From NCBI GenBank assembly GCA_964481185.1, contig CAYZSY010000003.1, positions 1-40,927 of the forward strand: 40,927 nucleotides of DNA, read 5' to 3'. Of this stretch, positions 387 through 35,740 are shown piece by piece. Under the pieces are notes generated by a model. That model saw nothing but the letters and a program-made list of their open reading frames with translations. It was not told the origin of the DNA and did not search any database. Position numbers and translations under genes: made by a program. Position 1 is the first letter of the stretch. The number at the start of each line of letters is the position of its first letter. The stretch is from Candidatus Woesearchaeota archaeon. Its GTDB lineage: Archaea > Nanobdellota > Nanobdellia > Pacearchaeales > GW2011-AR1.

Positions 387-785
387 ATGGAGTTGTCAGC
401 AAAACCTTGGTTTTCATCTAAAATGGAAGGCAAAGATAGGATTATAGAAGAGAGAAAGGAGAAGGTTAAGAATTTCTTTAAGTCTAATCCAAATAGGATA
501 TTCTGGTTCGTGCTGATATTATTAGTTATTCTCGGAATAATTACAAGGATTCAACCATTGCTTGACCACGGAGGTCGTCCAGGTTTGTGGGACGTAACAA
601 CTAACGATTATACTTTGGGCCCAGACTTAGACCCATTCTTATTCTTAAAATATGCAAAAACAATGATCTCAGAAAGTGGTCTTCCAAGCATAGATATTAT
701 GAGAAATGTTCCGCTTGGTTTTGATACATCTACAGAATTGCAGATGGTTCCCTATATGATTGTACTTACTTACATATTCAATTAA
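387..785 (+). CDS. aglB: AglB/STT3 oligosaccharyltransferase, N-terminal fragment (TM1 plus first external loop), cut off from the rest of the gene by a frameshift
   Basis: A basic N-terminus, one TM helix (IFWFVLILLVILGIITRI), then GPDLDPFLFLKYAK, which looks like the conserved acidic first-loop motif of STT3/AglB/PglB. The ORF overlaps the next ORF by 26 nt in another frame, and the next ORF lacks exactly this N-terminal part. Confidence 0.7.
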   Translation: MELSAKPWFSSKMEGKDRIIEERKEKVKNFFKSNPNRIFWFVLILLVILGIITRIQPLLDHGGRPGLWDVTTNDYTLGPDLDPFLFLKYAKTMISESGLPSIDIMRNVPLGFDTSTELQMVPYMIVLTYIFN

Positions 786-3150
786 TTTTGCCGGCGCTTT
801 CATGCCAGTAATACTTTTTGCTCTTACAATTATCGCGTTTTTCTTTTTTGTAAGGGAGATATTCACAAGGAAAGATGATAAAGAAAGCAAGCTGAAAGCA
901 AACATCATTGCCTCAATCTCAACACTTTTTATGATTGTTATACCAGGATTTCTCTCAAGAACAGTTGCAGGAATTCCTGAAAAAGAATCTGTCGGATTTT
1001 TCTTCATGTTTTTGGCATTTTATCTTTTTGTAAAAGCCTGGAAATCGGAGAATCTAAAAAATGCGCTAATTCTTGGGGCTTTATCAGGCGTTTCAACCGC
1101 TTTTATGGGTCTAAGCTGGGGCGGAGTAGTTTATATTTATGCAAGCATTGCCCCCGCATTTCTGGCAGCTATTTTATTGGGCAAAGTAGGAAAAAAGGAA
1201 ACTCTTGTTTATGTTTCTTGGGTAATCTTCTCTTTTGTTCTGACCCTGCTTTTTACAAACAGGTTTTCTCTTAAGGGATATATAACTTCATTAGATACAG
1301 GACTTGTCATAGTCAATCTGATAATACTTGCAGTTCACTTTCTGCTCTGGAATCTAAATTTCAATGAAAAGCTAAAATTAAATAAAATTAATCTTCCAAA
1401 GCCAATAATTTCTCTTATAGCATCAATTGTTGTTATAATTGTTTTAGCATCTCTTATTTTGGGCCCTGGATTTATATTTGAAAAATTGAATGCATTAAAC
1501 CAGATATTAATAGAGCCAATTCAAGGCCGTTGGAGCACAACAGTTGCAGAGAATAGGCAGCCTTACTTCTCGGAGTGGGCCGGCTCTTTTAGCAAATTTA
1601 TCTTTTGGGGTTTCATAATTGGTTCAGCTTTGTTGTTCAGAAAAGTTCTAGCTGGAATAGATAAAAAAAGAGCATACATCCTTACCGGATTTTACATATT
1701 TTTCTTATTTGGGTTGATATTTTCCAGATATGCGCCGCATCCTGCGCTCCTTGACGGAGAAGGATTTCTAAGCAAATTGTTGTATTATGGCTCATTTCTT
1801 GCTCTTATAAGCGCATTTGGATACTATTATATAAAAGATTACAAAGAAGGCAAGAGCTCATTCCAGACTATAAATTTCGAATATGTATTTCTTTTTGCAC
1901 TGTTCGTGCTTACATTATTTACCGCAAGAAGCGCAGTAAGATTAATTATGGTCCTTGTACCAATTGCTCCGATATTTTTAGTTTATCTTCTTGTAGAAAT
2001 AGGGGATTTGTCAAGAAAAGCAACAGATCAGACAATAAAAATAACATTTTTTATTCTGGCAATAGGCTTGCTTGTTTTCAGCACTTATCAGGCTTATGGA
2101 TTTTACAAAGAAACAAAATCAATGTCTTATAATTATGTTCCAAACTATTACACAGTTCAATGGCAGAAAGCTATGGAATGGGTGAGAGAGAATACTCCAC
2201 AAGATGCTGTTTTTGCCCACTGGTGGGACTATGGTTATTGGCTTCAGTCAATAGGTGAGAGAGCTACAGTTACAGATGGAGGAAACATAATTGTCTGGTG
2301 GAATTATTTAACAGGAAGATTTGTCTTAACAGGAGATAATCAGAAAGATGCACTTGAATTCTTATACAACCACAATGCTTCTTATCTATTAATTGATTCA
2401 ACAGATATAGGAAAATACGGGGCATATTCCCAGATAGGAAGCGATGAGAAATTTGACAGGTTATCACAAGGTCCGTTTGCTCTCATCTCAGATGGAAGAG
2501 AAATCCAGGAGACAAAAAACGAGACTATAAGAGTTTACAACAGGCCTTCAGGAAATGGACAGGTAGCCATATTTCCATTAGAAGAAGATGTAATATACAA
2601 AAACAACGGCTCAAATATATATCTACTAAAAGAGAACACTCAATTATTTGGAATTAAGGTTAGCTATTCTCAAAGCGACAACTCCACACTGTTTAATCAG
2701 CCTGAAGCAATCTTTGTTTCTAAACAACAATATACGACAGTCCCAATAAAGTATCTTAAATATAAGGATAAATTTTATGATTATGGCTCTGGAATTGATG
2801 CAGCAGTTAATATAATTCAGAGAGTCTCGCAGAACGAGAGAGGAGTTCAGATTGATAATATTGGTGCGCTAATTTATCTTTCTCCAAGAGTCTTCAGGGG
2901 AATGATGGGCCAGGTTTATATCTTAGATGACCCTCTCAAGAGATTCTCAAACTTTGCACTTGTTCACTCAGAGCCAAATCTAATTGTAGACTCTTTAAAC
3001 CAGCAGGGAGCAAATCTTGAAGATTTTGTTTTCTTAAATGACATCCAAGGACCAATTAAAATATGGAAAGTAAATTACAAAGGTGATGAAAAGATAAATC
3101 CAGAATACACACAAATGGGAGTTCCGTCTTATATAACCTGGAAGTTCTAA
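760..3150 (+). CDS. aglB: AglB/STT3 archaeal oligosaccharyltransferase, main body (TM domain plus C-terminal catalytic/periplasmic domain)
   Basis: HWWDYGYWLQ (the WWDYG signature of STT3/AglB/PglB), a downstream DK-type motif LIDSTDIGKYGAY, about 12 hydrophobic helices and a large soluble C-terminal domain. The listed start is a TTG immediately after an in-frame TGA (757-759), so the real N-terminus is the 387-785 ORF. Confidence 0.9.
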   Translation: MYLLTYSINFAGAFMPVILFALTIIAFFFFVREIFTRKDDKESKLKANIIASISTLFMIVIPGFLSRTVAGIPEKESVGFFFMFLAFYLFVKAWKSENLKNALILGALSGVSTAFMGLSWGGVVYIYASIAPAFLAAILLGKVGKKETLVYVSWVIFSFVLTLLFTNRFSLKGYITSLDTGLVIVNLIILAVHFLLWNLNFNEKLKLNKINLPKPIISLIASIVVIIVLASLILGPGFIFEKLNALNQILIEPIQGRWSTTVAENRQPYFSEWAGSFSKFIFWGFIIGSALLFRKVLAGIDKKRAYILTGFYIFFLFGLIFSRYAPHPALLDGEGFLSKLLYYGSFLALISAFGYYYIKDYKEGKSSFQTINFEYVFLFALFVLTLFTARSAVRLIMVLVPIAPIFLVYLLVEIGDLSRKATDQTIKITFFILAIGLLVFSTYQAYGFYKETKSMSYNYVPNYYTVQWQKAMEWVRENTPQDAVFAHWWDYGYWLQSIGERATVTDGGNIIVWWNYLTGRFVLTGDNQKDALEFLYNHNASYLLIDSTDIGKYGAYSQIGSDEKFDRLSQGPFALISDGREIQETKNETIRVYNRPSGNGQVAIFPLEEDVIYKNNGSNIYLLKENTQLFGIKVSYSQSDNSTLFNQPEAIFVSKQQYTTVPIKYLKYKDKFYDYGSGIDAAVNIIQRVSQNERGVQIDNIGALIYLSPRVFRGMMGQVYILDDPLKRFSNFALVHSEPNLIVDSLNQQGANLEDFVFLNDIQGPIKIWKVNYKGDEKINPEYTQMGVPSYITWKF
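763..773 (+). repeat. Tetranucleotide tandem repeat TACT-TACT-TAC at the aglB frame junction
   Basis: Read directly: gtaCTTACTTACat. It lies inside the only interval (760-785) where both aglB reading frames are open. Removing one 4-nt unit fuses the 387 frame to the 760 frame. Confidence 0.9.
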
Positions 3151-20213: not shown

Positions 20214-21617
20214 ATGAATCATAAAAGGAAAATTTTTTTATTTGAGACTTCTGTCGAAGACCAAAATAGGGAGCGTGGAGAGATACGAGAAGGAAATAAT
20301 ACGCCTTTTCCCATAGGCATCCTTTATTTAGATACTATTCTTAGAAACTATGGGTATAATGTACTGACAAAAGATTATACTGCTTGGAGTGAGAAACATT
20401 GTCTAAAAGAAATCGAGGTACAAATTAAAAAATTTAAACCTGATATTGTCGGGATAACTGTGATGTCAATGACAAGAGCATCATCATATAAAGCAATGCG
20501 TCTTATAAAAAGATTGAGCCCTCAGATAAAGATAATTCTCGGAGGAATACATGCAAGTGTTATGTATAGTCAGCTATTAAAAAATTTTCCTGTGGAAGCA
20601 ATCTGCATCGGCGAAGCAGATAAGAATATAATTCCTCTAATTAACTCACTTTCAAAAGGAAAGTCCCTAAAGGCAATTCGAGGGATAGCATATAAAGATA
20701 AAAATGGGCAGATTGTAAGAACGGCGCTACAAGATCTTGGCAGAGACATTGATGATTTGCCATATCCTAATTACAATGCATATATGAATCCAAACATAAA
20801 GAGGGTTTATATGATAAGTTCGCGAGGGTGCCCTAATCGATGTTCATTTTGTTGCCTGCATCTTACTAGTAGGCAAATATGGAGGCAAAGAAGTTATGTA
20901 AAAGTGGTAGAAGAAATTGAATATATTACTAAGAAATATCCCTGGGTTGAGGAGATTCAATTTATGGACGATACGATGACATTAGATAATGCGCGCATTA
21001 TTAATTTATGTAAGGAGATAGTAAAAAGAGGAATTCATCTGCGATTTTATTGTGCTGGAAGAGTTAAACCTGTTTCGAGAGAGATGTTTTATTGGATGGA
21101 AAGAGCGGGATTTAAAGAGATTCAGTTTGGTATTGAAACAGGCAGCGATAAGATAATGAAATCAATTAATAAGGGAATTACGAAGCAAGATTGTATTATT
21201 GCATTTAAATTGCTCCGGGAGTTTCCAAAAATTAAGGCAGTTAAGTTTATTATTGTGGGTTTACCTGGGGAAACTGAAGGAACAGTAGAAGAGACTATTA
21301 ATTTTATTAAACAACTCCAAAAATTAAAAAGAATGGACTTTTTTTATGCAGCGCCTCTTTGGATATATCCAGGTACAGACGTATATCAAATAGCAATGGC
21401 GAAAGGGCTTATTAATGATTCATACTGGCTTAGCGATAAGCCTTGTCCCCTTTATACGCTTGAGCATTCCGAACAATGGCTTATGAAGATGTCTAACAAA
21501 ATTGCAATTAAAACGATGCTGGCGCAGGGAAAAATTTACTTTTTAAAACGACTCATTGAGAAAATAAAACAAAACCCCCAATACTACATGGAACGATTTT
21601 TGCGCTTAAGAAAGTAA
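20214..21617 (+). CDS. B12-binding-domain radical SAM enzyme (class B), paralog 3
   Basis: PDIVGITV, ILGGIHASVMY, CIGEAD, SSRGCPNRCSFCC (CX3CX2C), FGIETGS. Confidence 0.85.
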   Translation: MNHKRKIFLFETSVEDQNRERGEIREGNNTPFPIGILYLDTILRNYGYNVLTKDYTAWSEKHCLKEIEVQIKKFKPDIVGITVMSMTRASSYKAMRLIKRLSPQIKIILGGIHASVMYSQLLKNFPVEAICIGEADKNIIPLINSLSKGKSLKAIRGIAYKDKNGQIVRTALQDLGRDIDDLPYPNYNAYMNPNIKRVYMISSRGCPNRCSFCCLHLTSRQIWRQRSYVKVVEEIEYITKKYPWVEEIQFMDDTMTLDNARIINLCKEIVKRGIHLRFYCAGRVKPVSREMFYWMERAGFKEIQFGIETGSDKIMKSINKGITKQDCIIAFKLLREFPKIKAVKFIIVGLPGETEGTVEETINFIKQLQKLKRMDFFYAAPLWIYPGTDVYQIAMAKGLINDSYWLSDKPCPLYTLEHSEQWLMKMSNKIAIKTMLAQGKIYFLKRLIEKIKQNPQYYMERFLRLRK

Positions 21618-21642: not shown

Positions 21643-22800
21643 TTATTTAAGCGCAGCATCAAATATTTCTTTAAGCCGTTTATTTCGTTTTTCCAAAGAA
21701 AACTTTGTATTTGAAATTTTTAGACTTTCTGCGCCCATTTTTTCTCTAAGATTCTTATTTTCTATTAAGCGTGCAGCTCTATTATATAATCTATTAACCA
21801 CAATAGGATCTATAACTTTAAGATGATTAATAAATTTCTTGGATCGTACACCTAGATAAGGAGTTTCTACCGGAGGATAGGGTATTTTTTCTGAGGGTTT
21901 TACTAAGAAACCATTTTTTCCGTCGATAATAAATTCAGAAACTCCATGCCGATCAAGTGCAATAATGGGCAATCCAAATGACATCGCCTCAAGTGTGGCC
22001 ATGAGAAAATAAAAATGGCCCGGGAAGAAAAAGATATCTGCATCTCGATATAATTGTTGTATCCTCGCCATGGGCAGAGTTTCTTCCAAATACTCAATGT
22101 TGTTAAGAAGGTATCTCTCTTTTATGTTCTGAGGAACCTTTGCTCTCATAACTAATTTAATATTATCATATCTTTTACTCAGTTTTTTGAACGTTTCCAA
22201 GACCTCCAACCCTCCCTTGCTATAAAAATCATCGGGATTATTAATGGAACCCATAAATAGGAAAATAATGCTTTTACTATTCTTTCTTTTTTCTATAATC
22301 TTGCTGGGAGGTATTGCAGGTGGAAGAAGCTCAATCTTTTTCAGAATCTCCTTAGAAAAGAAATTTTCAAATTCGCGTCTTACAATTGAAGTGTGAATAA
22401 TTATCTTCTTACACCATCGAGAAGCAAGTATTTTATTTATTTTTCTCAGGTTTTTTCTAAATAACTTAAGGTCATATCCAGCGAATGAAGTGGGCGTATC
22501 TAAAATTTCTACAATCCAAGGTTTTTCCTCTTGAACAAGTTGGCCATGAGAAAAGATTAAATCGGCGTCTTTTGGAGATTTTTCATAAAAAATATTATTT
22601 ATCAGATTAAAAGAGTTAAACGCTTTTTGATATACTTCTTTATAAAGATAAAGAATTAATTTATTCTTCTTAAGTTTTGATATTATATTTGATTTCTTTT
22701 CATTTTGAACTACAATGAATTTATATCCCTTAGGAGGATTCTCAACCAATTTTTTCACATACGTATGCAAACCAACTCCGAAACAATATACTTTCTTCAT
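21643..22800 (-). CDS. GT4 (GT-B fold) glycosyltransferase
   Basis: FFFPGHFYFLMATLEAMSFGLPIIALDRHGVSEFIIDGKNGFLV (EX7E-type region). There is a 4-nt overlap with the upstream fcl-like gene. Confidence 0.75.
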   Translation of the reverse strand: MKKVYCFGVGLHTYVKKLVENPPKGYKFIVVQNEKKSNIISKLKKNKLILYLYKEVYQKAFNSFNLINNIFYEKSPKDADLIFSHGQLVQEEKPWIVEILDTPTSFAGYDLKLFRKNLRKINKILASRWCKKIIIHTSIVRREFENFFSKEILKKIELLPPAIPPSKIIEKRKNSKSIIFLFMGSINNPDDFYSKGGLEVLETFKKLSKRYDNIKLVMRAKVPQNIKERYLLNNIEYLEETLPMARIQQLYRDADIFFFPGHFYFLMATLEAMSFGLPIIALDRHGVSEFIIDGKNGFLVKPSEKIPYPPVETPYLGVRSKKFINHLKVIDPIVVNRLYNRAARLIENKNLREKMGAESLKISNTKFSLEKRNKRLKEIFDAALK

Positions 22801-23735
22801 TTTTGTTTATTTTCTAGATACCAGTCTATGGTTCTTTTCAACCCACTATCTAGATCAACATTAGTTTTAAGTCCGATTTCTTTTTTTGCCCTTGAACTGT
22901 CAACAGCTCTTCTCAATCTTCCATCTGGCTTAGATGTGTCCCAAGTAATTTCTCCCCTATAATCAACAACTTTAGACACAGTTTCTGCAAGCTTTTTTAT
23001 AGTTATTTCATTGCCAGATCCTATATTCAGTGGATCTTTTGAATTATACTTTTCAATTGCTTCAATTAGTGCATTCGCAGCATCTTCAACATAAATAAAC
23101 TCTCTCTTAGCCTTTCCAGTTCCCCAAAGAGTTACACTCTTGTTCCCATTTGTCTTGGCTTCCTGAAATTTCTTGATCATAGACGGAATTACATGCGAAT
23201 TACCGTCAAAGTGGTCTCTTGGACCATACAAGCTTGTAAATATCAGATAAATAGAATTAAGGCCATATTCTTTTCTATATACTTCTGCCTGTGCAGCCAG
23301 CATCCTGCTGGAAAGCCCGTATGGGGCCTCTATATCATTTGGCTGGCCATTCCATAAATCACACTCTTTGTATGGGATTTCAGCACTTTCCGGGTAGGCT
23401 AAAGTAGTTCCAGCGATGACAACTTTTTCAATATTTTTATCTTTTGCAACATTTAAAAGTTGCATTCCCATCATAAGATTATCAAAAAATACTTCGGCGG
23501 GGTGTTCCTTATAGTATGCCATTCCCCCAGAGACAGTAGCGAGATGAATGACAATCTCGGGTTTAAATTGGTTAAATACCTTTTCAATATCTTCTCTTTT
23601 TCTTAAATCATAATCTTTTCTTCTTGGGACGAATATGTTTTCTTTCTTAACTCCTCTTTTGGAAAGCGTATCAACAATCCAGGATCCAAAAAATCCTGCT
23701 CCCCCGGTAACTAAAATCCTTTTATTTTCAATCAT
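22797..23735 (-). CDS. fcl: GDP-L-fucose synthase family SDR (Fcl/WcaG-like epimerase/reductase)
   Basis: KRILVTGGAGFFGS, LYGPRDHFDGNSHVIPSMIKKFQEA, REFIYVEDAA and WDTSKPDGRLRRAVDSSRAKK all resemble E. coli Fcl as I recall it. It is divergent from gmd. Some catalytic positions look non-canonical (GTTLAYP instead of GSSCIYP, YGLSSR instead of YAIAK), so activity may differ. Confidence 0.65.
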   Translation of the reverse strand: MIENKRILVTGGAGFFGSWIVDTLSKRGVKKENIFVPRRKDYDLRKREDIEKVFNQFKPEIVIHLATVSGGMAYYKEHPAEVFFDNLMMGMQLLNVAKDKNIEKVVIAGTTLAYPESAEIPYKECDLWNGQPNDIEAPYGLSSRMLAAQAEVYRKEYGLNSIYLIFTSLYGPRDHFDGNSHVIPSMIKKFQEAKTNGNKSVTLWGTGKAKREFIYVEDAANALIEAIEKYNSKDPLNIGSGNEITIKKLAETVSKVVDYRGEITWDTSKPDGRLRRAVDSSRAKKEIGLKTNVDLDSGLKRTIDWYLENKQK

Positions 23736-23881: not shown

Positions 23882-24973
23882 ATGGCTCAAAAAGTAGCGC
23901 TAATAACAGGAATAGGCGGTCAAGATGGATCTTATTTGGCAGAATTTCTTTTGGAGAAAGGATACAAAGTAAGAGGCATAATTAGAAGGGCAAGTCTTCC
24001 AAATACAAAAAGAATAGAGCATCTTGTAATGAAATACGGCACTTCAGATGATAAAAACTCTTCATTTTTAGTTAAATACGCAGACCTCACAGATACTTCT
24101 TCAATAAAGGCAATTATTGAGGATTTTCAACCGGATGAAATTTATCATATTGGTGCACAAAGCCACGTCGGTATAAGCTTTAATAATGCAGAATCAACAA
24201 TTAATATAAACACTCTTGGCACACTAAGAATTCTAGAGACTCTCAGACAAATGAAATCAAAATGCAAATTTTATCAGGCCTCTTCTTCAGAAATGTTTGG
24301 AATCTCTCCTCCTCCGCAGAATGAATCTACACCAATGATTCCTCAAAGCCCCTATGGAATATCAAAGCTCGCAGCATACCATTTAACAAGATTGTATAGA
24401 AATGCATACGGGCTTTTTGCTTCTAATGGAATTCTCTTCAATCACGAGTCTCCAAGAAGAGGATATAATTTTGTTACGAGAAAGATAACAAAAGAGCTTG
24501 CAAAGATTGTTGTTGGTGAAAGTGATAAAATTGTCTTGGGCAACCTTGATGCGAAAAGAGACTGGGGTTTCTCAAAAGAATATATTGAAGCAATGTGGGC
24601 AATCCTCCAGCAGCCAACGCCTGATGATTTTGTAATTGCAACAGAAGAAACGCATACAATAGAGGACTTTGTAAAAGAAGCTTTCTCTCTGGTTGGTCTG
24701 AATTATGAGAACCATTTAATAACAAGCAATCAGTTTAAGAGGCCAGCAGAAGTGCCTGCTCTTTTAGGAGATTCCTCAAAAGCAAAAAGAATTTTGGGTT
24801 GGAATCCAAAAGTAAAATTCAAGGAGATTGCATTTATGATGGTTGAATCTGATCTTAAAGAAAAGTTGGAGGAATCTGGATTAATTCCCATAGAGCCAAA
24901 TGTTGTAAGACCAGAAGGATATTATATAGAAAAGGCGAAGGAAATTCTTGCGAAAAGAAAGCAGAACCTTTAA
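23882..24973 (+). CDS. gmd: GDP-mannose 4,6-dehydratase
   Basis: KVALITGIGGQDGSYLAEFLLEKGYKV.GI.RRAS is near-identical in pattern to E. coli Gmd. Also ASSSEMFG, SPYGISKLAAY, NGILFNHESPRRG, FVTRKIT, LGNLDAKRDWGFSKEY, DDFVIAT, RPAEV..LLGDSSKA. Confidence 0.92.
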   Translation: MAQKVALITGIGGQDGSYLAEFLLEKGYKVRGIIRRASLPNTKRIEHLVMKYGTSDDKNSSFLVKYADLTDTSSIKAIIEDFQPDEIYHIGAQSHVGISFNNAESTININTLGTLRILETLRQMKSKCKFYQASSSEMFGISPPPQNESTPMIPQSPYGISKLAAYHLTRLYRNAYGLFASNGILFNHESPRRGYNFVTRKITKELAKIVVGESDKIVLGNLDAKRDWGFSKEYIEAMWAILQQPTPDDFVIATEETHTIEDFVKEAFSLVGLNYENHLITSNQFKRPAEVPALLGDSSKAKRILGWNPKVKFKEIAFMMVESDLKEKLEESGLIPIEPNVVRPEGYYIEKAKEILAKRKQNL

Positions 24974-24975
24974 AT

Positions 24976-25431
24976 TTATTTTGTTTCTTGGATTATTGAA
25001 GGGCTTACTCTGATCGTGTCAGATTCGTAATCTTTCCCTCCGCGTAGTCCACTAGTAAAAGTTATGAATACAGTTTCAGGTTCAAGAATCTTTAGAGCAT
25101 GGATTTCATTAGGGGGCGTCGATATAATCTCCCAATTTTTTTGTAATTCGCATTTTGCCGGCTCATTAGAATTTAATGGTTTATACCAATATTCCATTGA
25201 ACCATTTATCATGAGCATGTGCTGTGTTGATTTTACATGATAATGATTTCCTCTTAGTGCTCCCTTATTTGAGCGAATCATATTTACATGATTTATATTG
25301 GTATTATAGAATATATCAACAATATCTCCCCTGTCATCTGTATGTAGCTCCAATTGCAGACCTTCATTTCTCCAAGCATTTGGCCCTACTTGCTTCCAAT
25401 CTGCATTGCTCCAGATATTTCTTTTTTGCAT
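24976..25431 (-). CDS. WxcM/FdtA/QdtA-type cupin, NDP-4-keto-6-deoxyhexose ketoisomerase/epimerase-like
   Basis: 151 aa. DDRGDIVDIF...NMIRSNKGALRGNHYHVKSTQHMLMINGS matches the D.RG...RG.HAH pattern of FdtA-like cupins. It is the last gene of a minus-strand operon. Confidence 0.6.
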   Translation of the reverse strand: MQKRNIWSNADWKQVGPNAWRNEGLQLELHTDDRGDIVDIFYNTNINHVNMIRSNKGALRGNHYHVKSTQHMLMINGSMEYWYKPLNSNEPAKCELQKNWEIISTPPNEIHALKILEPETVFITFTSGLRGGKDYESDTIRVSPSIIQETK

Positions 25432-25460
25432 ATAGATTTGTTAAACCGCAGGTTTATAAA

Positions 25461-26681
25461 TTATTCTGGAACAATAAATTTTATATTTGGATTTATTTTT
25501 GCCAAACCATCTTTTATCTGATTAGCTATGTTCCAAGAAAGTATCAAGGCACAGACCTCCCCGTTATATTTTGCAAAGATCTCATCTCCAACTATTGGGA
25601 TTCTACTCAACGGAGTATATTTTCCTTGTTTATGGGGAGAAGAGTCTGTAACATAATCTAAAATAGTATTTGTCAGATTGTAAAAGTTAAGGAAAGTATT
25701 TCCCTTTGCAGCAGCTCCAACCGCAACTATCGGAATATTCCTTCTCCTAATTTCATAGACTTTTTGGAGAAAGTTATTTCTTTGTTTTATTATATCTTCC
25801 ATAAATCTTTTGTAGCCATTTAAATCAAATAGCCCTTCTGAGAATTCTTTGTTGATGGTTTCCTCAAGCTGGCTGCATTCCGCACTCTCTACTCTATCTT
25901 CATGTTTTGCATAAACTCTCAATGAGCCGCCATGATAATCAACAACATCCAAATCTCTTATTCCCATCCCAGCTATCTCCAATATCTTTTTTGATGATCT
26001 TGCTGTGAAATAACTGACATGCTCATGATATATCTGATCAAATTTGCCTGTTTTGAATCCGATATACCAATATGGGAGCTCGTAAACAAAAGTTCCATCA
26101 TCAGAAAGCAGTTTTTTTACAGCTTTTGCAAAATCAAGGGGGCTGTTTGAGTGATTGAAAACGTTATTTGCGATAATAATGTCTGCTTTTCCATGTTTTT
26201 TCAATATTTCATCAGCAATTTTGGAATCAAAGAGACCAACTACAGTATCAACATTCCTATTTTTTGCAAGTCTCGCCATATAGTCAGAAGGATCAACGCC
26301 TAGAACCCTGTTTCCATTGCTTGCAAACTGTTCTGTTAAGAACCCGTCATTTGAACCTACTTCAACAATGAATGAATCTTTCTTTAAGCCTATCTTATCA
26401 GATACTTCTCTGGCGAAGTTTATCCAATGTGTTCTTGAAAAGTTAGAATTGGAGGAAGTATAAGAATAATCTACCTGACAATATCTGTCCATTGGATTTG
26501 TTTCGCATCTAAGCTGTATTTGGCCGCATTCTTGACAAAGGTCGCATATCAAAGGATATGCTTTATCTGCCTCAGAAATGCGGTCTTTAGGTACGAATGT
26601 GTCTGCAAACGGGTGCATTCCCAAATTTATTATCTCATTAAGGTTTATTGAACCGCAGATCAAGCACTTTGTTCTAAACAT
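25461..26681 (-). CDS. NDP-hexose C-methyltransferase (TylC3/EvaC-type class I SAM methyltransferase with N-terminal Zn-ribbon and C-methyltransferase C-terminal domain)
   Basis: CLICGS...YPLICDLCQECGQIQL (two Cys pairs), VEVGSNDG (SAM motif I), YHEHVSYF and HGGSLRVYA. I recognise this architecture from sugar C3/C5 C-methyltransferases. Confidence 0.8.
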   Translation of the reverse strand: MFRTKCLICGSINLNEIINLGMHPFADTFVPKDRISEADKAYPLICDLCQECGQIQLRCETNPMDRYCQVDYSYTSSNSNFSRTHWINFAREVSDKIGLKKDSFIVEVGSNDGFLTEQFASNGNRVLGVDPSDYMARLAKNRNVDTVVGLFDSKIADEILKKHGKADIIIANNVFNHSNSPLDFAKAVKKLLSDDGTFVYELPYWYIGFKTGKFDQIYHEHVSYFTARSSKKILEIAGMGIRDLDVVDYHGGSLRVYAKHEDRVESAECSQLEETINKEFSEGLFDLNGYKRFMEDIIKQRNNFLQKVYEIRRRNIPIVAVGAAAKGNTFLNFYNLTNTILDYVTDSSPHKQGKYTPLSRIPIVGDEIFAKYNGEVCALILSWNIANQIKDGLAKINPNIKFIVPE

Positions 26682-26696
26682 AGAAATTGCTTTTCT

Positions 26697-27107
26697 TCAA
26701 GCTATATAAGTTTTGTCCTTCTCTCCCCCCAAATATGGACCATTCTTAATCTCGTATAATTTTGTTCCACTAACAAGAGATTTGAATAAATGCCCGCCAG
26801 CATAGCAAACACAACAATCTCCCATTTTCAACTCAACTTTCTTAATTTCCAAGTCATTTAAATCATAAAAAGTCGCTTCCAGCTTGCCCTCAACCACTAT
26901 GACTGCTTCTTGAGTTGTATCAGTCTCTCTTATATTTTTAAGATGTTTGTGGGCTGGAACAGAATCTCCTTCCTTGAATTCAATAAAAGAAACCTGAAGT
27001 GCATCTTCCTGAGAGCCGAAATCTTCTCTTCTTTTATCAATATCTTCTTTTCTGCATATTACATCAAGCAGAACATCTTTTTTGATAGAAGAATATATTC
27101 TTTCCAT
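26697..27107 (-). CDS. Small cupin-fold protein (WbuC-like or sugar epimerase/isomerase candidate)
   Basis: 136 aa. VPAHKH...QEAVIVVEGKLEATFYD...GGHLF is a cupin two-motif pattern. It sits inside the sugar-tailoring operon. Confidence 0.4.
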   Translation of the reverse strand: MERIYSSIKKDVLLDVICRKEDIDKRREDFGSQEDALQVSFIEFKEGDSVPAHKHLKNIRETDTTQEAVIVVEGKLEATFYDLNDLEIKKVELKMGDCCVCYAGGHLFKSLVSGTKLYEIKNGPYLGGEKDKTYIA

Positions 27108-27178
27108 GATTTAGAGCAGAAGAGTTTATATAAATACTTTTCCGGCACTCATCCAGTTAGCAAACAATACACGCAACC

Positions 27179-28699
27179 TCACTTTGCCTGCAAATTATAT
27201 AATACCCGCCTGATTGTACTTATAACTCCTTCGCGTCTTAAGAATCTTAAGATTTTTTCATATTTTTCTTTTTTGTTTTGCATATTCATAATAAATCCGC
27301 GGGGAAGCCAATAGAAAAAGTCGTATAAAATGTTGTATTTAATTGCACCTTGAAATGCCCGCCCAATATTTCTTAGATTACATGGATAAGTCGGTGTTCT
27401 GAATATGCACCTATAATACGCTTTTAATCTCTCTTCTTTAGGAAAATCAGGACTCTCAGCACAGGGCTCATCATAGGTAAAACTTTCTGTAATTCTACTA
27501 TCATAATTAAGAGTGTTACCGACAACCCCATTTTGTTTAAACCACCTCCCAACTTCAGTATCTTCGTATGGAAGTACTAGGTTCCATCCACAGTAATCCG
27601 CTCTGGTTTCATTTGCAAATTTTATACACGCTTTTACTCTTTCGTAATTATCTTCTGGCAAACCAATAATAAAAGAAAGGCCCAATTTTAATCCATATTT
27701 TTTTACTAATCTGGCAGCTTCTTTTATCTTTTCTAGAGACTCTCCTTTATTTACCAGTTTATATACCTCGGGATGTGCATGTTCTACACCTAACCAAACT
27801 TCAGGACAACCGCATTCTTTCAAGAGGGCCAATAAGTGGTCGTTAATACAATCTGCCCTTGTATTAACAATTCTTAAATCTAGCTTTATCTTTTTTCTGT
27901 ATAATTCTAAAAATTGAATAAACCTGTCAATATTCGTAGTCGGACAGTCATCGCACACAACAACTCGGATATTACTAGACAGACTTTTTTTTGCATTCTC
28001 CAACTCTTCAATGCAATTCTGAGGCGTTCGCCACCGCCACTTTCTATTTGAGACTGAAAAAACAGTGCAGAAACTGCATTTAAATGGGCAGCCTCGAGAA
28101 GTCATAATTGGATAGTTTCTTATATACTCTGATTTGTAAAATGATTTAAAATCTGGAAATGGAACATCATCTAAATTTACAAATTCACGCGATTGAATCC
28201 GTTCAGCCTTTTTAAGTTTTTTTGCTTTCTCAACTAAGTCTATTATAACGAGCTCTGCTTCGCCAACAGCAACATAATCTACTTTTTCATTTTCTAACAA
28301 CTGCTTTGGATATAAAGTTGCACATGGTCCGCCTACCAAGATTATTAAGTTCTTGTTAAATCGATTAACTTCAGAAATTGTTTTGCTAACTTCAGAGAAA
28401 TTTATACTATATGAACTTATTCCGACTATATCCGGCTTAAAATTTCTCAGGAAAAAAGAGACTGGGATATCCCCATGAAGTAAAACATAATCTACTACTA
28501 ACACCTCATGACCCCTCTCTCTTAGAATAGTCGATAGTATTGCCAATCCATTGTGTGGAATTGAAAACTCTACATTCTTCCTTTTTGGATTAATCAATAG
28601 AACTCTTTTTTTAAGAGATTCTGGAACAATTTTAATGGCCTTTAATTCTTGAGATTTCATGTTTTTAGTTGTTTTGAGAGATTTATAAATCTTAATCAT
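27179..28699 (-). CDS. B12-binding-domain radical SAM enzyme (class B), paralog 4
   Basis: LLINP, PDIVGISS, LVGGPCATLYP, AVGEAE, TSRGCPFKCSFCT (CX3CX2C). The likely true start is Met14 at 28660 (MKSQELK...), because a TTTATAAA box lies inside the first 13 codons, exactly 29 nt upstream of that ATG. Confidence 0.85.
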   Translation of the reverse strand: MIKIYKSLKTTKNMKSQELKAIKIVPESLKKRVLLINPKRKNVEFSIPHNGLAILSTILRERGHEVLVVDYVLLHGDIPVSFFLRNFKPDIVGISSYSINFSEVSKTISEVNRFNKNLIILVGGPCATLYPKQLLENEKVDYVAVGEAELVIIDLVEKAKKLKKAERIQSREFVNLDDVPFPDFKSFYKSEYIRNYPIMTSRGCPFKCSFCTVFSVSNRKWRWRTPQNCIEELENAKKSLSSNIRVVVCDDCPTTNIDRFIQFLELYRKKIKLDLRIVNTRADCINDHLLALLKECGCPEVWLGVEHAHPEVYKLVNKGESLEKIKEAARLVKKYGLKLGLSFIIGLPEDNYERVKACIKFANETRADYCGWNLVLPYEDTEVGRWFKQNGVVGNTLNYDSRITESFTYDEPCAESPDFPKEERLKAYYRCIFRTPTYPCNLRNIGRAFQGAIKYNILYDFFYWLPRGFIMNMQNKKEKYEKILRFLRREGVISTIRRVLYNLQAK

Positions 28700-28806: not shown

Positions 28807-30450
28807 CTAACTTTCTCTTGAACCTGTCACTAACTTCATCTTCTCCTGTTCCATCATAGCATTAATAAGAAATTTTAGTAAAGATATGTTTCCCCTCAAT
28901 ACATCCATAATAAGGAGATAAGAATATTTGTTTTTGAGGATACTTTTTTGTTTTAGCATGGAGTATATTTCATATAAAAATTTAAATCTGAATACTTCCT
29001 TCATAACCTTATAATCTTTTATTTTTACATCTTTAATCTGAATCAAAGGAATATCTACAAAAACACTATTTTTCTCATTTATAAAAGAGATTTCATCTCC
29101 TTCAAAAACTTTTTTGAAAGCAGTATAATTCTTGATAAAATAATGTTTATCTACCATCAATTGGTTTATATTAAGACAGGAAGCAAAATTTTTGCTGCTA
29201 AGTTTTCTATACGCATCATCTATAAAAAAGTACATATAATTTCCAACTAATTTGGAATAAACATAATAACTACAGCAACTAATCTTCTTTTTAGTTCTCT
29301 GCAAGGAATATGCTTGTAAATAATCTCTAAGAAAATGAGCATTACACTCGTCTTTAGAAAAGGATATATAATCTGCATCTTCAACTTTTTCTTTAATTCT
29401 CTTTATACTTAACTCAAAATCTCTCTCATTTAGAGTAATTATCTTTTTATTTAATTTAGGAAGTTCTTTATGGTATACGGACTTATTTAAAGTTTTATTT
29501 ATAAATCTCCTAAGCTGAATATTAATATTATATTTTTTAACAATCTTTTTGTAGGCTCTTTCCGTAATTTTCTCTCTTTCCTTATCATTCTCTAGATAAT
29601 AGTTAATTTTGTTTAGCAAATCTCTCTTGCTTTTGAACATAACCAATTCTCCTTTGTTAAAGAAATTTCTGTGCCCTGAAAAATATTGTTCAAGAACAAA
29701 AGACTTGCAAGCCACAATCTTGTAAACTCTTCCCTTATAATGTGTTTGCCCATATGCATTTTCTGAAAAAGACAGTACAATCTTGCTCTGATTTATTACT
29801 TTAATAAGTTGGCTATTGTCAAGCGGACCATGATAAATATCTTTAAATTCAGGATATTTATCCCACCCCCATCCATACAATCTTATGTTAATCCCCTTAT
29901 TCATTAAAAATTTGATAAAAGCATATCTCTGGGCTTTTGGAGCGCCTATAAAAGTTACATCGTATATTTTTTTTAAATTTAATGGCTTAAAATCTTCTAT
30001 ATTCACTAATGGATAAATCAGAAAAACATTTTTAATTCCTTCTCTTTTGTAATTCTTTACTAAATTCGGCTGGCTCATTAAATTATAATCAAAAAATAAC
30101 GCATGATATCTTGAAAAACTCTCAAACTGAGTATCATCATCTGAAAAGAAGTTAACCGTCTTCGTTGTCTCTGAAGATTCTTTAATTTTTATCAAGGTGT
30201 CTAAATAAACCTCGTCATAAGTCCAATAAAAGAAGATATAATCAGGCTTTTCTTTTTCTACCAACTCCAAGAGATGTTTATTCATAGATTCTTGTCCTTG
30301 TATCAACAGATTTTTTCTTGTATCAAACAAAATCAGCTTTTTGCAGAGATTCTTCAATGGTTTATACCAGTTTTGATATAAACTTCTATTTTTGTCCAGA
30401 CTCATCGCAAGAATGATTTTTTTAGCCTTGAAGAATTCTCTTTTTCTCAT
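28807..30450 (-). CDS. CgeB/YkvP-like glycosyltransferase-family protein (DUF3880 + Glyco_trans_1_2-like) with an unassigned ~200-aa C-terminal region
   Basis: The middle region IVLSFSENAYGQTHYKGRVYKIVACKSFVLEQYFSGHRNFFNKGELVMFKSKRDLLNKINYYLENDKEREKI resembles the spore-maturation CgeB-type GT-B C-terminal half. I cannot assign residues from about 330 to 547. Confidence 0.5.
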   Translation of the reverse strand: MRKREFFKAKKIILAMSLDKNRSLYQNWYKPLKNLCKKLILFDTRKNLLIQGQESMNKHLLELVEKEKPDYIFFYWTYDEVYLDTLIKIKESSETTKTVNFFSDDDTQFESFSRYHALFFDYNLMSQPNLVKNYKREGIKNVFLIYPLVNIEDFKPLNLKKIYDVTFIGAPKAQRYAFIKFLMNKGINIRLYGWGWDKYPEFKDIYHGPLDNSQLIKVINQSKIVLSFSENAYGQTHYKGRVYKIVACKSFVLEQYFSGHRNFFNKGELVMFKSKRDLLNKINYYLENDKEREKITERAYKKIVKKYNINIQLRRFINKTLNKSVYHKELPKLNKKIITLNERDFELSIKRIKEKVEDADYISFSKDECNAHFLRDYLQAYSLQRTKKKISCCSYYVYSKLVGNYMYFFIDDAYRKLSSKNFASCLNINQLMVDKHYFIKNYTAFKKVFEGDEISFINEKNSVFVDIPLIQIKDVKIKDYKVMKEVFRFKFLYEIYSMLKQKSILKNKYSYLLIMDVLRGNISLLKFLINAMMEQEKMKLVTGSRES

Positions 30451-30478: not shown

Positions 30479-30583
30479 ATTTATAAACCTTAATTTATTC
30501 TTGCTAAGATAAAGCATATATTCTCCAATATGAATGTTTAAAAATCGTGTCAATTATAAGAAATTATGAGTTTTAGAAGGGTT
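30479..30583. repeat. Copy B of the ~105-nt direct repeat (functional bidirectional promoter of the 547-aa gene and the SDR operon)
   Basis: See copy A. It contains TTTATAAA at 30480-30487 (minus-strand box, 37 nt from ATG 30450) and TTTAAAAA at 30537-30544 (29 nt from ATG 30566). Confidence 0.6.
30537..30544 (+). promoter_or_regulatory. TATA box (gaatgTTTAAAAA) for the 30566-37758 operon
   Basis: Starts 29 nt upstream of ATG 30566. Confidence 0.5.
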
Positions 30584-31546
30584 TTAATCACTGGAATTAG
30601 CGGCTCTGGAGGGAGCTATCTTGCGGAGTATGTAGCAGATAATCATCCTGAATCAGAGATTCATGGAATCTCAAGATGGCACAGTACTTCTTCTAAGAAG
30701 AATCTTGAGAGAATTGCAGATAAAGTGCAAATGCACGAATGCGATTTAACTGATATGAGCTCGGTTATTTCTTCTTTAAGAGAAACTAAGCCAGAGGCCA
30801 TATTTCACATTGCTTCTCACGCAAATGTTCGGGCTTCTTTTACAAATCCTCTGGCAGTCATTCAGAATAATATTATGGGAACCGCAAATCTTCTTGAAGC
30901 ATTGAGAATCGAGGGAATGAATTCAAGAGTTCAAATTTGCAGCACATCAGAAGTCTATGGGCAGGTTGATTCTAAAAATGTGCCTATTAAAGAGGATTGT
31001 CCAATAAATCCATCAAATCCTTATGCTGTCTCAAAGGTTGCTCAAGATTTGCTTGGTGGAGTTTATCATAGAAGTTATCAAATGGATATTGTAAGAACAA
31101 GAATGTTTTCTTATCTAAATCCAAGGAGGTCAGACTTATTTTCAACAAGCTTTGCTCTTCAAGTGGCAAGAATAGAACAAGGATTGCAGAAAGAGCTCAT
31201 ACATGGAAATCTAGACTCTACAAGAACAATTATAGATGTTAGAGATGCAATGGAGTCCTATTGGGTTGCAATAGAAAAAGGAAGGTCTGGAGAAGTTTAT
31301 AATATTGGAGGAGATAAGATAATAACAGTTGGAGAATTCTTACATCTTTTAAGGAAGAATGCAAAATGCGAGATTCCATGCAGGCAGGATCAATCATTAA
31401 TGAGGCCAAGCGATGTGACTTTGCAAATACCGGATGTATCAAAATTTAGAAACGAAACAGGATGGAAACCAAAATATAGTTTTGAGGAGAGTGTGGAATA
31501 TTTATTAAATCACTCTAGAAAAGAAGTTGAGAGGGAGATAAAATGA
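30566..31546 (+). CDS. Extended SDR of the GDP-mannose 4,6-dehydratase / GDP-4-keto-6-deoxymannose reductase (Gmd/Rmd, DmhA/DmhB-like) group
   Basis: RVLITGISGSGGSYLAEY, CSTSEVYG, PYAVSK (YxxxK), HGNLDSTRTIIDVRD (compare Gmd LGN.D..RDW and Rmd GNL...RDF.DVRD). Confidence 0.6.
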   Translation: MSFRRVLITGISGSGGSYLAEYVADNHPESEIHGISRWHSTSSKKNLERIADKVQMHECDLTDMSSVISSLRETKPEAIFHIASHANVRASFTNPLAVIQNNIMGTANLLEALRIEGMNSRVQICSTSEVYGQVDSKNVPIKEDCPINPSNPYAVSKVAQDLLGGVYHRSYQMDIVRTRMFSYLNPRRSDLFSTSFALQVARIEQGLQKELIHGNLDSTRTIIDVRDAMESYWVAIEKGRSGEVYNIGGDKIITVGEFLHLLRKNAKCEIPCRQDQSLMRPSDVTLQIPDVSKFRNETGWKPKYSFEESVEYLLNHSRKEVEREIK

Positions 31547-35213: not shown

Positions 35214-35740
35214 TAAAAAGAGCTGTTTTTTTAGATAGAGATGGGGTAATTTGTAAGGAGAAAAATCTATTTTACGGTGGGAAGCCCATACTTAGACCAG
35301 AGGATTTTGAGTGGATTTATGGCTCTAAAACTGCATTGAGAGAATTGAAAGAATTAAATTTTAAAACATTCGTTGTTACGAACCAGTCATCCATCAGTAA
35401 AGGCATTCTGAATTTTAAGCAGTTTATGAGAATAAATCAGCCAATAATCGAGGAGCATCCTGAAATTCATTTTTACTGTTGCCCGCATAGAAGAGAAGAA
35501 AATTGTTCCTGTAGAAAACCCAAGATAAAATTTCTTCTTCAAGCTAAGAAAGAGCACGGAGTTTCATTAGAAGATTCTTATGTAATTGGAGACAAAACGC
35601 AAGATATTCTGATGGGAAAAAATGCAGGATGCAAAACAATTCTCGTTAGAACGGGATATGGTGGAAGAGACGAGTTGTACAAAGTCAAATATGATTTTGA
35701 GGTCAGAGATTTTTTGGAGGCAGTCAGATTCTTAAGATGA
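35210..35740 (+). CDS. gmhB: D-glycero-D-manno-heptose 1,7-bisphosphate phosphatase (HAD-IIIA, GmhB-type)
   Basis: AVFLDRDGVI (DxDG nucleophile motif), VVTNQSSISKG, the Zn-finger insert CCPHRREENCSCRKPK, and GDKTQDILMGKNAG. ATGA overlaps on both sides. Confidence 0.8.
   Translation: MIKRAVFLDRDGVICKEKNLFYGGKPILRPEDFEWIYGSKTALRELKELNFKTFVVTNQSSISKGILNFKQFMRINQPIIEEHPEIHFYCCPHRREENCSCRKPKIKFLLQAKKEHGVSLEDSYVIGDKTQDILMGKNAGCKTILVRTGYGGRDELYKVKYDFEVRDFLEAVRFLR

Follow-up and report, generated by a model that had tools for sequence, protein, structure and literature searches.

Do archaea make sugars that carry a methyl branch on a ring carbon, and if so, which genes are involved? The question is raised by the window analysed here, the entire 40,927-nucleotide contig C3 (CAYZSY010000003.1) of a Candidatus Woesearchaeota assembly, in which the gene of a sugar C-methyltransferase (MT) is flanked on the minus strand by the genes of two small cupins (cupB upstream, cupA downstream), follows a gene for a B12-binding radical S-adenosylmethionine (SAM) protein (rSAM4), and faces a convergent gmd gene. 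A preliminary description had joined the four minus-strand genes into one operon for a branched deoxysugar; its four open reading frames, the motifs quoted for them (RGNHYH in cupA among them) and the convergent gmd are all found where it had placed them. We propose, with a probability of about 0.7, that cupB, MT, cupA and gmd form a module, extended in DPANN archaea by an Fcl-like short-chain dehydrogenase/reductase (SDR) and two glycosyltransferases (GT1 and GTl), which makes a GDP-6-deoxy-C-methyl-hexose from GDP-mannose for a glycan dependent on the oligosaccharyltransferase AglB, and that rSAM4 lies outside this pathway.

The methyltransferase and its conserved partners

The MT protein matches three Pfam models over their cut-offs, namely Methyltransf_13 (PF08421), an N-terminal four-cysteine zinc-binding domain, with 51.8 bits (cut-off 31.3), Methyltransf_23 (PF13489), a class I SAM-binding domain, with 57.4 bits (cut-off 27), and the C-terminal Methyltransf_14 (PF08484) with 125.4 bits (cut-off 23.5), and its translation contains CLICGS...CQECGQ, VEVGSNDG, IYHEHVSYF and YHGGSLRV. 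Among PDB sequences, it aligns over residues 4-394 with 4rv9, entitled 'D-mycarose 3-C-methyltransferase' (E 1.9e-55), and further with TcaB9 (3ndi, E 3.8e-49) and with 5t64/5t6b, entitled 'sugar 3-C-methyl transferase' (about 3e-46); we take 4rv9 to be MtmC and 5t64/5t6b to be KijD1. When single-mutant chains of TcaB9 are compared with 3ndi, the E->Q exchange of 4e2y falls on MT E220 and the Y->F exchanges of 4e31 and 4e2x on Y72 and Y218, respectively; H177 and H221 align, as counted by hand, with two histidines of TcaB9. In that enzyme, the residues probed in the active site are presumably Tyr76, His181, Tyr222, Glu224 and His225, three of which agree with the deposited mutant chains. The zinc cysteines C6, C9, C49 and C52 align with cysteines of TcaB9, and these four, together with Y72, H177, Y218, E220 and H221, are invariant across 40 aligned sequences (the window protein and 39 of 120 relatives among the matches listed). 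Membership of MT in the NDP-hexose C-methyltransferase family of the TylC3/TcaB9/KijD1/MtmC type, as had been claimed for it, can be regarded as established from its sequence. Clustering with non-sugar methyltransferases, which the preliminary description had named as one finding that would speak against it, is contradicted by the full-length homology to sugar enzymes.

The surroundings of MT are conserved. A scan with one genome per species retrieved 55 loci encoding an MT relative with 34-65% identity, 24 of them archaeal and 31 bacterial by record title, the latter mainly from Pelagibacterales (SAR11), with Verrucomicrobiota, Planctomycetota and the candidate phyla radiation (CPR) also represented. 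The loci were searched by tblastn with the window proteins (E <= 1e-5, at least 50% query coverage, each region assigned to its best-scoring query). A gmd gene lies within 6 kb of MT in 51 of the 55 (37 of the 38 with full 6-kb flanks), which bears out the idea that Gmd is the functional partner supplying a GDP-4-keto-6-deoxy substrate; a gmd gene beside MT would imply GDP as the carrier. Each cupin is found in 41 loci, cupA in 38 cases on the same strand and within 150 nt of MT, and cupB in 30 cases adjacent to it; at least one cupin is present in 49 loci and both in 33, with the order cupB-MT-cupA in 24. As this arrangement recurs in 55 independent loci, it is far beyond chance. Three further genes, which had not been considered before, co-occur with the module in DPANN loci: the Fcl-like SDR (25 of the 55 loci in all) and the two glycosyltransferases, with homologues of GT1 in 11 and of GTl in 12 of the 24 archaeal-labelled loci and of neither in the 31 bacterial-labelled ones.

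The family is also more common than had been supposed. It is present in 57 of 400 sampled high-quality genomes of the same phylum (56 of 399 if the unpublished genome G360 is set aside) and in 11 of the 27 genomes of the host's own family, so that its rarity had been overstated. In a tree of 59 rows, from which two partial matches were left out and in which five 30%-identical paralogues served as an outgroup on long branches, the window protein is grouped with a Nanoarchaeota sequence (SH-aLRT 97), and the domain labels are clustered (4 changes versus 19.6 in shuffles); since the deep branches are weak (SH-aLRT 77-91), no direction of transfer between the domains can be read from it. Five DPANN loci encode a second C-methyltransferase paralogue (27-31% identity) 4-5 kb from the first (L009:11505-12695, L017:10675-11874, L019:11483-12682, L021:11569-12762 and L025:11143-12099), and these pairs suggest two C-methyl sugar routes per island.

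Natural fusions, likewise new with respect to the preliminary description, tie MT to nucleotide-sugar chemistry and particularly to a cupin. The protein P0048 joins MT to a Polysacc_synt_C cupin, and all seven long MT frames (537-597 residues) of same-phylum genomes are MT-cupin fusions. In six of these, the cupin is C-terminal and matches Polysacc_synt_C, the RmlC-type dTDP_sugar_isom and/or FdtA, except that L076, one of the six, gives only sub-threshold Cupin_2/Cupin_1 matches; in the seventh, a cupA-like domain is N-terminal (hhalign probability 98%, E 9e-14). P0066, whose C-terminal 130 residues match the cupB profile weakly (probability 22%), was not counted. Longer MT relatives (93 matches of at least 712 residues) are fused to SDR dehydratase/epimerase or DegT aminotransferase domains: P0121 and P0122 (761-764 residues, 49% identity to the window MT) carry DegT, and P0123-P0211 (about 770 residues, 28-38% identity) carry SDR domains. 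They point to C-methyl amino-sugar variants and to variants with dehydratase/reductase and methyltransferase in a single polypeptide.

The cupA protein carries the motif R60-G-N-H63-Y-H65-(x4)-Q70, H111 and a C-terminal G-x-RGG-x-DYE-x-DT segment, and its alignment (37 of 43 matches plus the window protein, six with doubtful starts being left out) keeps R60-G61, H63, H65, Q70, H111 and the C-terminal segment. It exceeds the cut-off of Polysacc_synt_C (PF14667, the cupin domain of CapF/WbjC-type enzymes; 41.6 bits, cut-off 28.7) and stays under that of FdtA (PF05523; 20.3 bits, cut-off 23); its profile compared with FdtA 2pa7 gives E 0.23, and its closest PDB sequence is CapF (E 2.4e-3 as a single sequence, 3.3e-4 as a profile). 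In the comparison of its AlphaFold2 model (predicted local distance difference test, pLDDT, 85.7) with known structures by VIA-align, the top 14 rows are all dTDP-sugar 3,4-ketoisomerases (FdtA, QdtA, FdtD, WlaRA/RB, HCAN_0198 and one 'dTDP sugar isomerase' entry; Z 11.7-12.8, root mean square deviation 2.4-3.5, 116-126 residues aligned), followed at Z 10.5-11.5 by ChmJ, RmlC, StrM-type epimerases, Campylobacter GDP-heptose epimerases and CapF, a lead of only about 1 Z unit. The RGxHxHKxxxQ motif (RGNH63YH65...Q70 in cupA) aligns with RGYHSHKKLHQ of QdtA, RGEHAHKECKQ of FdtD and RGAHAHKELEQ of HCAN_0198; CapF has a Glu at the position of the Gln found in cupA and these three. The catalytic His-x-His of the ketoisomerases, H49/H51 in the titles of PDB entries 2pae, 2pak and 2pam, is kept as well. 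An N-terminal insertion of 13 residues, SNADWKQVGPNAW, at about residues 8-20 of cupA is absent from all 37 aligned homologues and is poorly modelled (pLDDT <50 at residues 10-16). On motif and predicted fold, cupA is a candidate epimerase or isomerase acting on a 4-keto sugar.

The cupB protein has a metal-binding-type motif, H53-x-H55...E67...H106, of which H53, E67 and H106 do not vary and H55 hardly varies in 32 sequences (31 of 41 matches plus the window protein). It matches no Pfam family, reaches 38.4 bits with the NCBIfam WbuC model (TIGR04366), under the cut-off of 42, and has WbuC/DUF6016 as its nearest named ESM Atlas cluster, at 0.93. The nearest ESM Atlas clusters of all are unnamed proteins of 131-138 residues; where a taxon is recorded for their members, it is mostly Uroviricota (phages), so that cupB-like cupins may be frequent in the glycan gene sets of phages as well. 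The cupB profile finds nothing significant among PDB sequences and only the fold comparison is informative: with the AlphaFold2 model (pLDDT 92.0), the CapF cupin domain fills the first four VIA-align rows (Z 13.7-14.0, 22% identity), and generic metal cupins follow almost on a par with it. The two cupins match each other by hhalign (probability 90%, E 1.6e-6), as would be expected of distant paralogues. The names under which they had been introduced, 'FdtA-like' for cupA and 'WbuC-like' for cupB, are fair terms for a likeness in fold and motif, extending for cupB to CapF, but membership is demonstrated for neither, as the FdtA and WbuC cut-offs are missed. The positions of these and the other features are given in the table.

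Table. Features of the window that bear on the module, its transcription and the surrounding glycan island
Feature	Positions	Strand	Length (residues)	Basis or remark
AglB/STT3-type oligosaccharyltransferase	760..3150	+	796	TTG start; Pfam STT3 (PF02516) 46.1 bits
GT1, Glycos_transf_1 glycosyltransferase	21643..22800	-	385	Pfam 60.5 bits; 4-nt overlap with Fcl-like gene
Fcl-like SDR, candidate 4-ketoreductase	22797..23735	-	312	NCBIfam; alignment to 1bsv
gmd	23882..24973	+		TIGR01472; Pfam GDP_Man_Dehyd
cupA, nucleotide-sugar cupin	24976..25431	-	151	Pfam Polysacc_synt_C; predicted fold; neighbourhood; fusions
TATA-like box TTTATAAA	25453..25460	-		directly 3' of MT stop; centred 25.5 nt upstream of cupA start
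MT, SAM-dependent NDP-4-keto-sugar C-methyltransferase	25461..26681	-	406	three Pfam domains; PDB homology
cupB, small cupin	26697..27107	-	136	WbuC likeness; predicted fold; neighbourhood
TATA box TTTATATA	27127..27134	-		centred 23.5 nt upstream of cupB start, inside 71-nt rSAM4-cupB gap
rSAM4, B12-binding radical SAM protein	27179..28699	-	506	PF02310; PF04055
GTl, Glyco_trans_1_2 protein	28807..30450	-	547	Pfam PF13524 84.7 bits

A predicted route to a C-methyl sugar

In the pathway that we propose, the catalytic steps, their order, the methylated carbon and the final acceptor are predicted from family memberships, the conserved neighbourhood and the fusions. From GDP-mannose, Gmd would first form GDP-4-keto-6-deoxy-D-mannose. 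Its gene, which converges on cupA with stop codons 2 nt apart, scores 426.2 bits with TIGR01472, over the equivalog cut-off of 415, and 400.4 bits with Pfam GDP_Man_Dehyd, and the translation holds SSSEMFG and YGISK (the SDR catalytic S/T-x-E and YxxxK) as well as GILFNHESPRRG, a motif given in the accessible text of PMC3539893. MT would then deprotonate a carbon adjoining the 4-keto group and add the methyl group of SAM, likely at C3 by analogy with all solved homologues. One or both cupins would invert a centre beside the keto group, at C5 after methylation and/or at C3 before it; we propose the cupins for this step because they are relatives of the FdtA ketoisomerases and of the CapF epimerase domain and are often fused to MT. 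The Fcl-like SDR, or another reductase, would reduce the 4-keto group, and the resulting GDP-6-deoxy-C-methyl-hexose would be transferred by GT1, a candidate for this role, or by GTl onto a lipid-linked glycan, which AglB would pass to protein. CDP- or dTDP-linked substrates were rejected as a first choice, despite a CDP-glucose-like gene pair at 6221-7878, because gmd is the gene conserved beside MT.

The Fcl-like SDR is not a complete fucose synthase, nor, by its residues, a canonical epimerase/reductase. It scores 254.3 bits with the GDP-L-fucose synthase model (NCBIfam NF047922), under the cut-off of 500. In GMER, the epimerase acid/base pair is Cys109/His179 and the catalytic triad Ser107/Tyr136/Lys140, as given in the accessible text of PMC3539893. 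Against the Escherichia coli GMER structure 1bsv, Ser107 corresponds to Thr110, Tyr136 to Tyr139 and His179 to His181, the epimerase Cys109 is replaced by Leu112, and Lys140 by Ser143, which is followed by Arg144. The epimerase cysteine is found in none of ten archaeal SDR orthologues from related loci (L004, L005, L006, L014, L018, L020, L022, L023, L025 and L026), where the column holds L, I, V, A or G. Epimerisation would therefore need other enzymes, for which the cupins are candidates, and the non-canonical SDR agrees with a pathway whose labour is divided, the cupins acting as epimerases. We take 4rv9 to be a bifunctional methyltransferase/4-ketoreductase. A 4-ketoreductase activity is also mentioned for the S. 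argillaceus enzyme in the accessible text of PMC3539893, which makes MT itself another candidate for the reductase.

The strongest competing explanation keeps the module and moves the methyl group: it would be placed on C5, as in noviose, or on C2 or C4 after a 3,4-ketoisomerisation by cupA, and the product would not be a 3-C-methyl sugar. C5 adjoins the 4-keto group just as C3 does, and C5-methyltransferases such as NovU share the enzyme family with C3-methyltransferases; moreover, the nearest structures to cupA are 3,4-ketoisomerases, whose RGxHxHKxxxQ motif it keeps. Against this, all solved homologues of MT are entitled 3-C-methyltransferases and the probed residues are identical, and the ketoisomerases lead by only about 1 Z unit for a protein that lies under the Pfam FdtA cut-off. 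We consider this course unlikely, and C3 remains our preferred position for the pathway as proposed. A bolder version of that pathway, which we put forward as a doubtful extension, holds that cupB-MT-cupA-gmd is a cross-domain route to a GDP-linked branched sugar of novel structure, in which a ketoisomerase-type cupin, the first of its kind to act on a GDP sugar, works together with a CapF-type cupin in a physical complex with MT; the methyl carbon or configuration could differ from mycarose, virenose and noviose, and the sugar would be carried by AglB-dependent N-glycans in DPANN and by surface glycans in SAR11 and Verrucomicrobiota.

The radical SAM neighbour, transcription units and sugar supply

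The preliminary description had placed rSAM4 at the head of the operon and had reasoned that a B12 radical SAM enzyme might alkylate the sugar a second time or in an unusual way. The link is tempting. The gene lies on the same strand only 71 nt from cupB, and the domains of its product are intact, with 64.3 bits for B12-binding (PF02310; cut-off 32.1), 83.8 bits for Radical_SAM (PF04055; cut-off 29.5) and the cluster motif CPFKCSFC (CxxxCxxC). All four B12-binding domains of the 81%-complete assembly are encoded in the window, and hence in its glycan genes (11531-13027, 18692-20128, 20214-21617 and 27179-28699); to our knowledge, cobalamin synthesis is not to be expected from a genome as small as about 0.6 Mb. 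This link is not upheld by the comparison of genomes. An rSAM4-like gene occurs in 4 of the 55 loci, with 23-27% identity and in no case adjacent to MT, and in 40 genomes of the same family no orthologue exceeds 35% identity; the best match there (35%) is no nearer to rSAM4 than are its paralogues in the window (29-30%). None of its 42 NCBIfam matches reaches the cut-off (the best, BchE, has 115.5 bits versus 481), and 15 of the 40 genomes have B12/radical SAM matches at E <= 1e-20, in up to five copies. From these weak, non-orthologous matches, it follows that rSAM4 belongs to a fast-diverging family, expanded in these archaea, and is not a partner of MT.

The spacing of genes and promoters leads in the same direction. 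The gaps on the minus strand are 107 nt between GTl and rSAM4, 71 nt between rSAM4 and cupB, 15 nt between cupB and MT, and 29 nt between MT and cupA. A consensus TATA box stands at the expected distance before cupB within the second of these gaps, TATA-like boxes precede cupA, GTl (centred 33.5 nt upstream) and gmd (28.5 nt), and there is none 18-40 nt upstream of the rSAM4 or MT start. Boxes of the form TTTAWAWA are centred 18-40 nt upstream of the start in 12 of the 36 window genes, as compared with 0.55 +/- 0.75 (maximum 4 in 1000 trials) at random positions. They lie at 20.5-33.5 nt, mostly 23.5-28.5, before the genes at 8876, 9842, 11531, 18692, 20214, 23882, 24976, 26697, 28807, 30566, 34248 and 37767, positions that would imply mostly leaderless or very short-leader mRNAs in the island. 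This analysis took the place of a scan with bacterial models, unsuited to archaea, in which sigma-70 promoters (30 versus 31.5 shuffled) and intrinsic terminators (6 versus 4.2) showed no excess. The probable transcription units are GTl-rSAM4, with GTl as the head, and cupB-MT(-cupA). A single operon of four genes with double C-alkylation is, in our judgement, quite improbable, and rSAM4 is probably a lineage-specific neighbour cotranscribed with GTl that takes no step in the pathway.

The supply of the sugar raises another competing explanation, in which the substrate is GDP-heptose and not GDP-mannose, and the product a C-methyl-6-deoxyheptose. Genes for an HddA/HddC-like kinase-guanylyltransferase fusion and for a GmhB-like phosphatase lie in the window, and Campylobacter GDP-heptose pathways pair a cupin epimerase with an Fcl-like reductase, according to PDB titles. 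The assembly has only two NTP_transferase genes, both within the window (6221-6907 and 35737-37758), and apart from the heptose genes it shows no route to a guanylylated sugar. To this it can be objected that gmd exceeds the equivalog cut-off for GDP-mannose dehydratase, that a second Gmd-like SDR (30566-31546) adjoins the heptose genes, and that gmd accompanies the module in many genomes, and we give this explanation little credence. That MT is no sugar enzyme at all and its neighbourhood a coincidence, as automatic database names such as 'class I SAM-dependent methyltransferase' and 'ubiquinone methylase' might suggest, is extremely improbable in view of its full-length homology to sugar C-methyltransferases, the conserved sugar-gene neighbourhood and the fusions to SDR, DegT and cupin sugar-nucleotide domains.

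Several points weigh against the pathway from GDP-mannose as we propose it. No phosphoglucomutase/phosphomannomutase (PGM/PMM) domain was found in the 81%-complete assembly, and the sole guanylyltransferase candidate is the HddC-like half of the HddA/HddC fusion, which belongs to the heptose pathway; GDP-mannose supply is thus unproven, and sugar-1-phosphates may have to be supplied by a host or by the 19% of the genome that is missing. The SDR has Ser143-Arg144 where the YxxxK lysine is expected, its orthologues have Y, F, L or I in the tyrosine column and K or R one position later than the usual lysine, and the protein may not be a working reductase; the degenerate active site makes the reductase step less certain. 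Methylation at C3 and at C5 cannot be told apart from the MT sequence, and for the two cupins both role and order are conjectural. Moreover, the 55 loci are a biased sample, retrieved by peptide patterns taken from the window MT, and six of them show no cupin under the search criterion; of these, L049 (3.0 kb) and L057 (4.8 kb) are short loci, and L007 is truncated at one end. There is no RNA run among the runs with near-identical DNA, so the transcription units rest on the positions of the TATA boxes, and the literature search found no assay of any enzyme of the module.

The glycan island and known systems

The organism is an uncultured archaeon with a small (DPANN-sized) genome. The assembly comprises 550,454 bases in 28 contigs and is 80.9% complete; because no 16S rRNA was found in it, the domain was assigned through the ribosomal proteins L15e and S3Ae, which are encoded by other contigs and whose families have matches only in the 4 archaea of 14 control genomes. 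The composition of C3 agrees with that of the remaining bin (G+C fraction 0.343, tetranucleotide r = 0.982), in accordance with the archaeal host assumed in the preliminary description, and the nearest relatives of the window proteins carry the labels Nanoarchaeota, Pacearchaeota or Woesearchaeota. By its gene content, the whole 41-kb contig is a single glycan island, with AglB/STT3, a Glycos_transf_4-family phosphotransferase-like gene, a flippase-like gene, about ten glycosyltransferases and the four B12/radical SAM paralogues, together with nucleotide-sugar routes of a CDP-glucose-like and a UDP-diacetamido-like kind, the GDP-heptose set (HddA/HddC fusion and GmhB) and the gmd region. In the AglB protein, the WWDYG motif stands at residue 488 and 11 segments are hydrophobic; its score with the archaeo_STT3 (archaeosortase-associated) subfamily model is 78.6 bits, under the cut-off of 450. 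By sequence it is a divergent AglB, which anchors the island and likely makes final use of the glycan.

At the edge of the island lie an MjaI-family restriction endonuclease gene (39808-40389, plus strand; Pfam RE_MjaI 225.5 bits) and, forming a restriction-modification pair with it, the end of an N6/N4 DNA methylase gene (40381-40926, minus strand) truncated by the contig end. DNA near-identical to positions 24976-28699 occurs in groundwater and soil metagenome runs of several studies (20 rows listed); 12 of the 20 rows contain at least half of the sampled words, and 3 of these may be the source sample. The population would appear to recur in subsurface samples.

Sugars with a C-methyl branch have been described in antibiotics of actinomycetes and in a few lipopolysaccharides (LPS) of bacteria. 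The statement that none has been assigned to an archaeal glycan stands: a full-text literature search, with most subscription journals outside its coverage, found no archaeal C-methyl sugar reported, and 'C-methyl' does not occur in the archaeal N-glycan papers that it retrieved. About one in seven of the genomes sampled from this DPANN phylum carries the gene set, which also occurs in abundant bacteria such as SAR11. If the module works as predicted, methyl-branched 6-deoxyhexoses would be widespread on environmental cell surfaces and archaeal N-glycans would gain a new class of building block; if the structure is novel, a C-methyl sugar would be a common and overlooked component of those surfaces. 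With five soluble enzymes and GDP-mannose, SAM and NADPH as inputs, the module offers a compact biochemical target, from which the tempting B12 radical SAM chemistry has now been removed.

Several known systems resemble parts of the module. With the solved 3-C-methyltransferases (4rv9, TcaB9, 5t64/5t6b), MT shares the three-domain architecture, the four-cysteine zinc domain, the class I SAM fold and Methyltransf_14, a full-length alignment (E 1e-46 to 1e-55) and identity at the positions mutated in TcaB9. Those enzymes act on dTDP-2,6-dideoxy or 3-amino sugars in actinomycete antibiotic pathways, whereas the window MT lies beside gmd, in an archaeal N-glycosylation island, and is paired with CapF/FdtA-like cupins. 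TylC3 and EryBIII are the classical NDP-hexose 3-C-methyltransferases, and the L-mycarose route proceeds from the TylC3/EryBIII C-methyltransferase to the TylK/EryBVII cupin 5-epimerase and the TylC2/EryBIV 4-ketoreductase. The predicted counterparts of all three, C-methylation by the 4-keto group, an inverting cupin and an SDR reductase, are encoded together in the window, but with GDP in place of dTDP, two cupins on the CapF/WbuC/FdtA side in place of one of RmlC type, and frequent fusion of MT and cupin.

Another parallel is the virenose (6-deoxy-3-C-methylgulose) of Coxiella burnetii LPS, for which a GDP route through Gmd (CBU_0689), a TylCIII-type methyltransferase (CBU_0691) and GMER (CBU_0688) has been proposed (PMC3539893, accessible text) and whose genetic context is treated in the available part of PMC5843353. 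Here, too, Gmd, a TylC3-type methyltransferase and an Fcl-type SDR would yield a GDP-6-deoxy-3-C-methyl-hexose for a surface glycan, and this is the only published combination of the kind found by our literature search in the texts accessible to it. The Coxiella proposal was made purely in silico; no cupin is named in its accessible text ('cupin' occurs 0 times in that of PMC3539893) and assigns the epimerisation to a canonical GMER, whereas the window SDR is devoid of the epimerase cysteine and two cupins are conserved instead. A separate cupin epimerase combined with an Fcl-like SDR that only reduces, acting on a GDP-4-keto-6-deoxy sugar, is known from the GDP-heptose pathways of Campylobacter jejuni, where PDB titles (7an4, 7ani, 7m15, 7anc and 7m13) name the cupin C3/C5 epimerases MlghB, DdahB and Cj1430 and Fcl-like C4 reductases; these pathways differ in that they are bacterial, have no C-methyltransferase, use RmlC-type cupins and make capsule sugars.

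As for the cupins themselves, cupB is closest to the cupin domain of CapF (Cap5F) and nearly reaches the WbuC model, and cupA shares the His-x-His-Lys...Gln motif of the FdtA/QdtA/FdtD 3,4-ketoisomerases, its nearest structural relatives. Unlike these, cupA and cupB stand alone or fused to MT, and not to an SDR or an acetyltransferase, and their substrate is presumably a GDP sugar and not a UDP or dTDP sugar. With a proposed chemistry like that of the mycarose-type branch and the in-silico virenose route, the module differs from these in its GDP carrier combined with two CapF/FdtA-like cupins, its SDR without the epimerase residue, its frequent MT-cupin fusions and its location in archaeal AglB islands.

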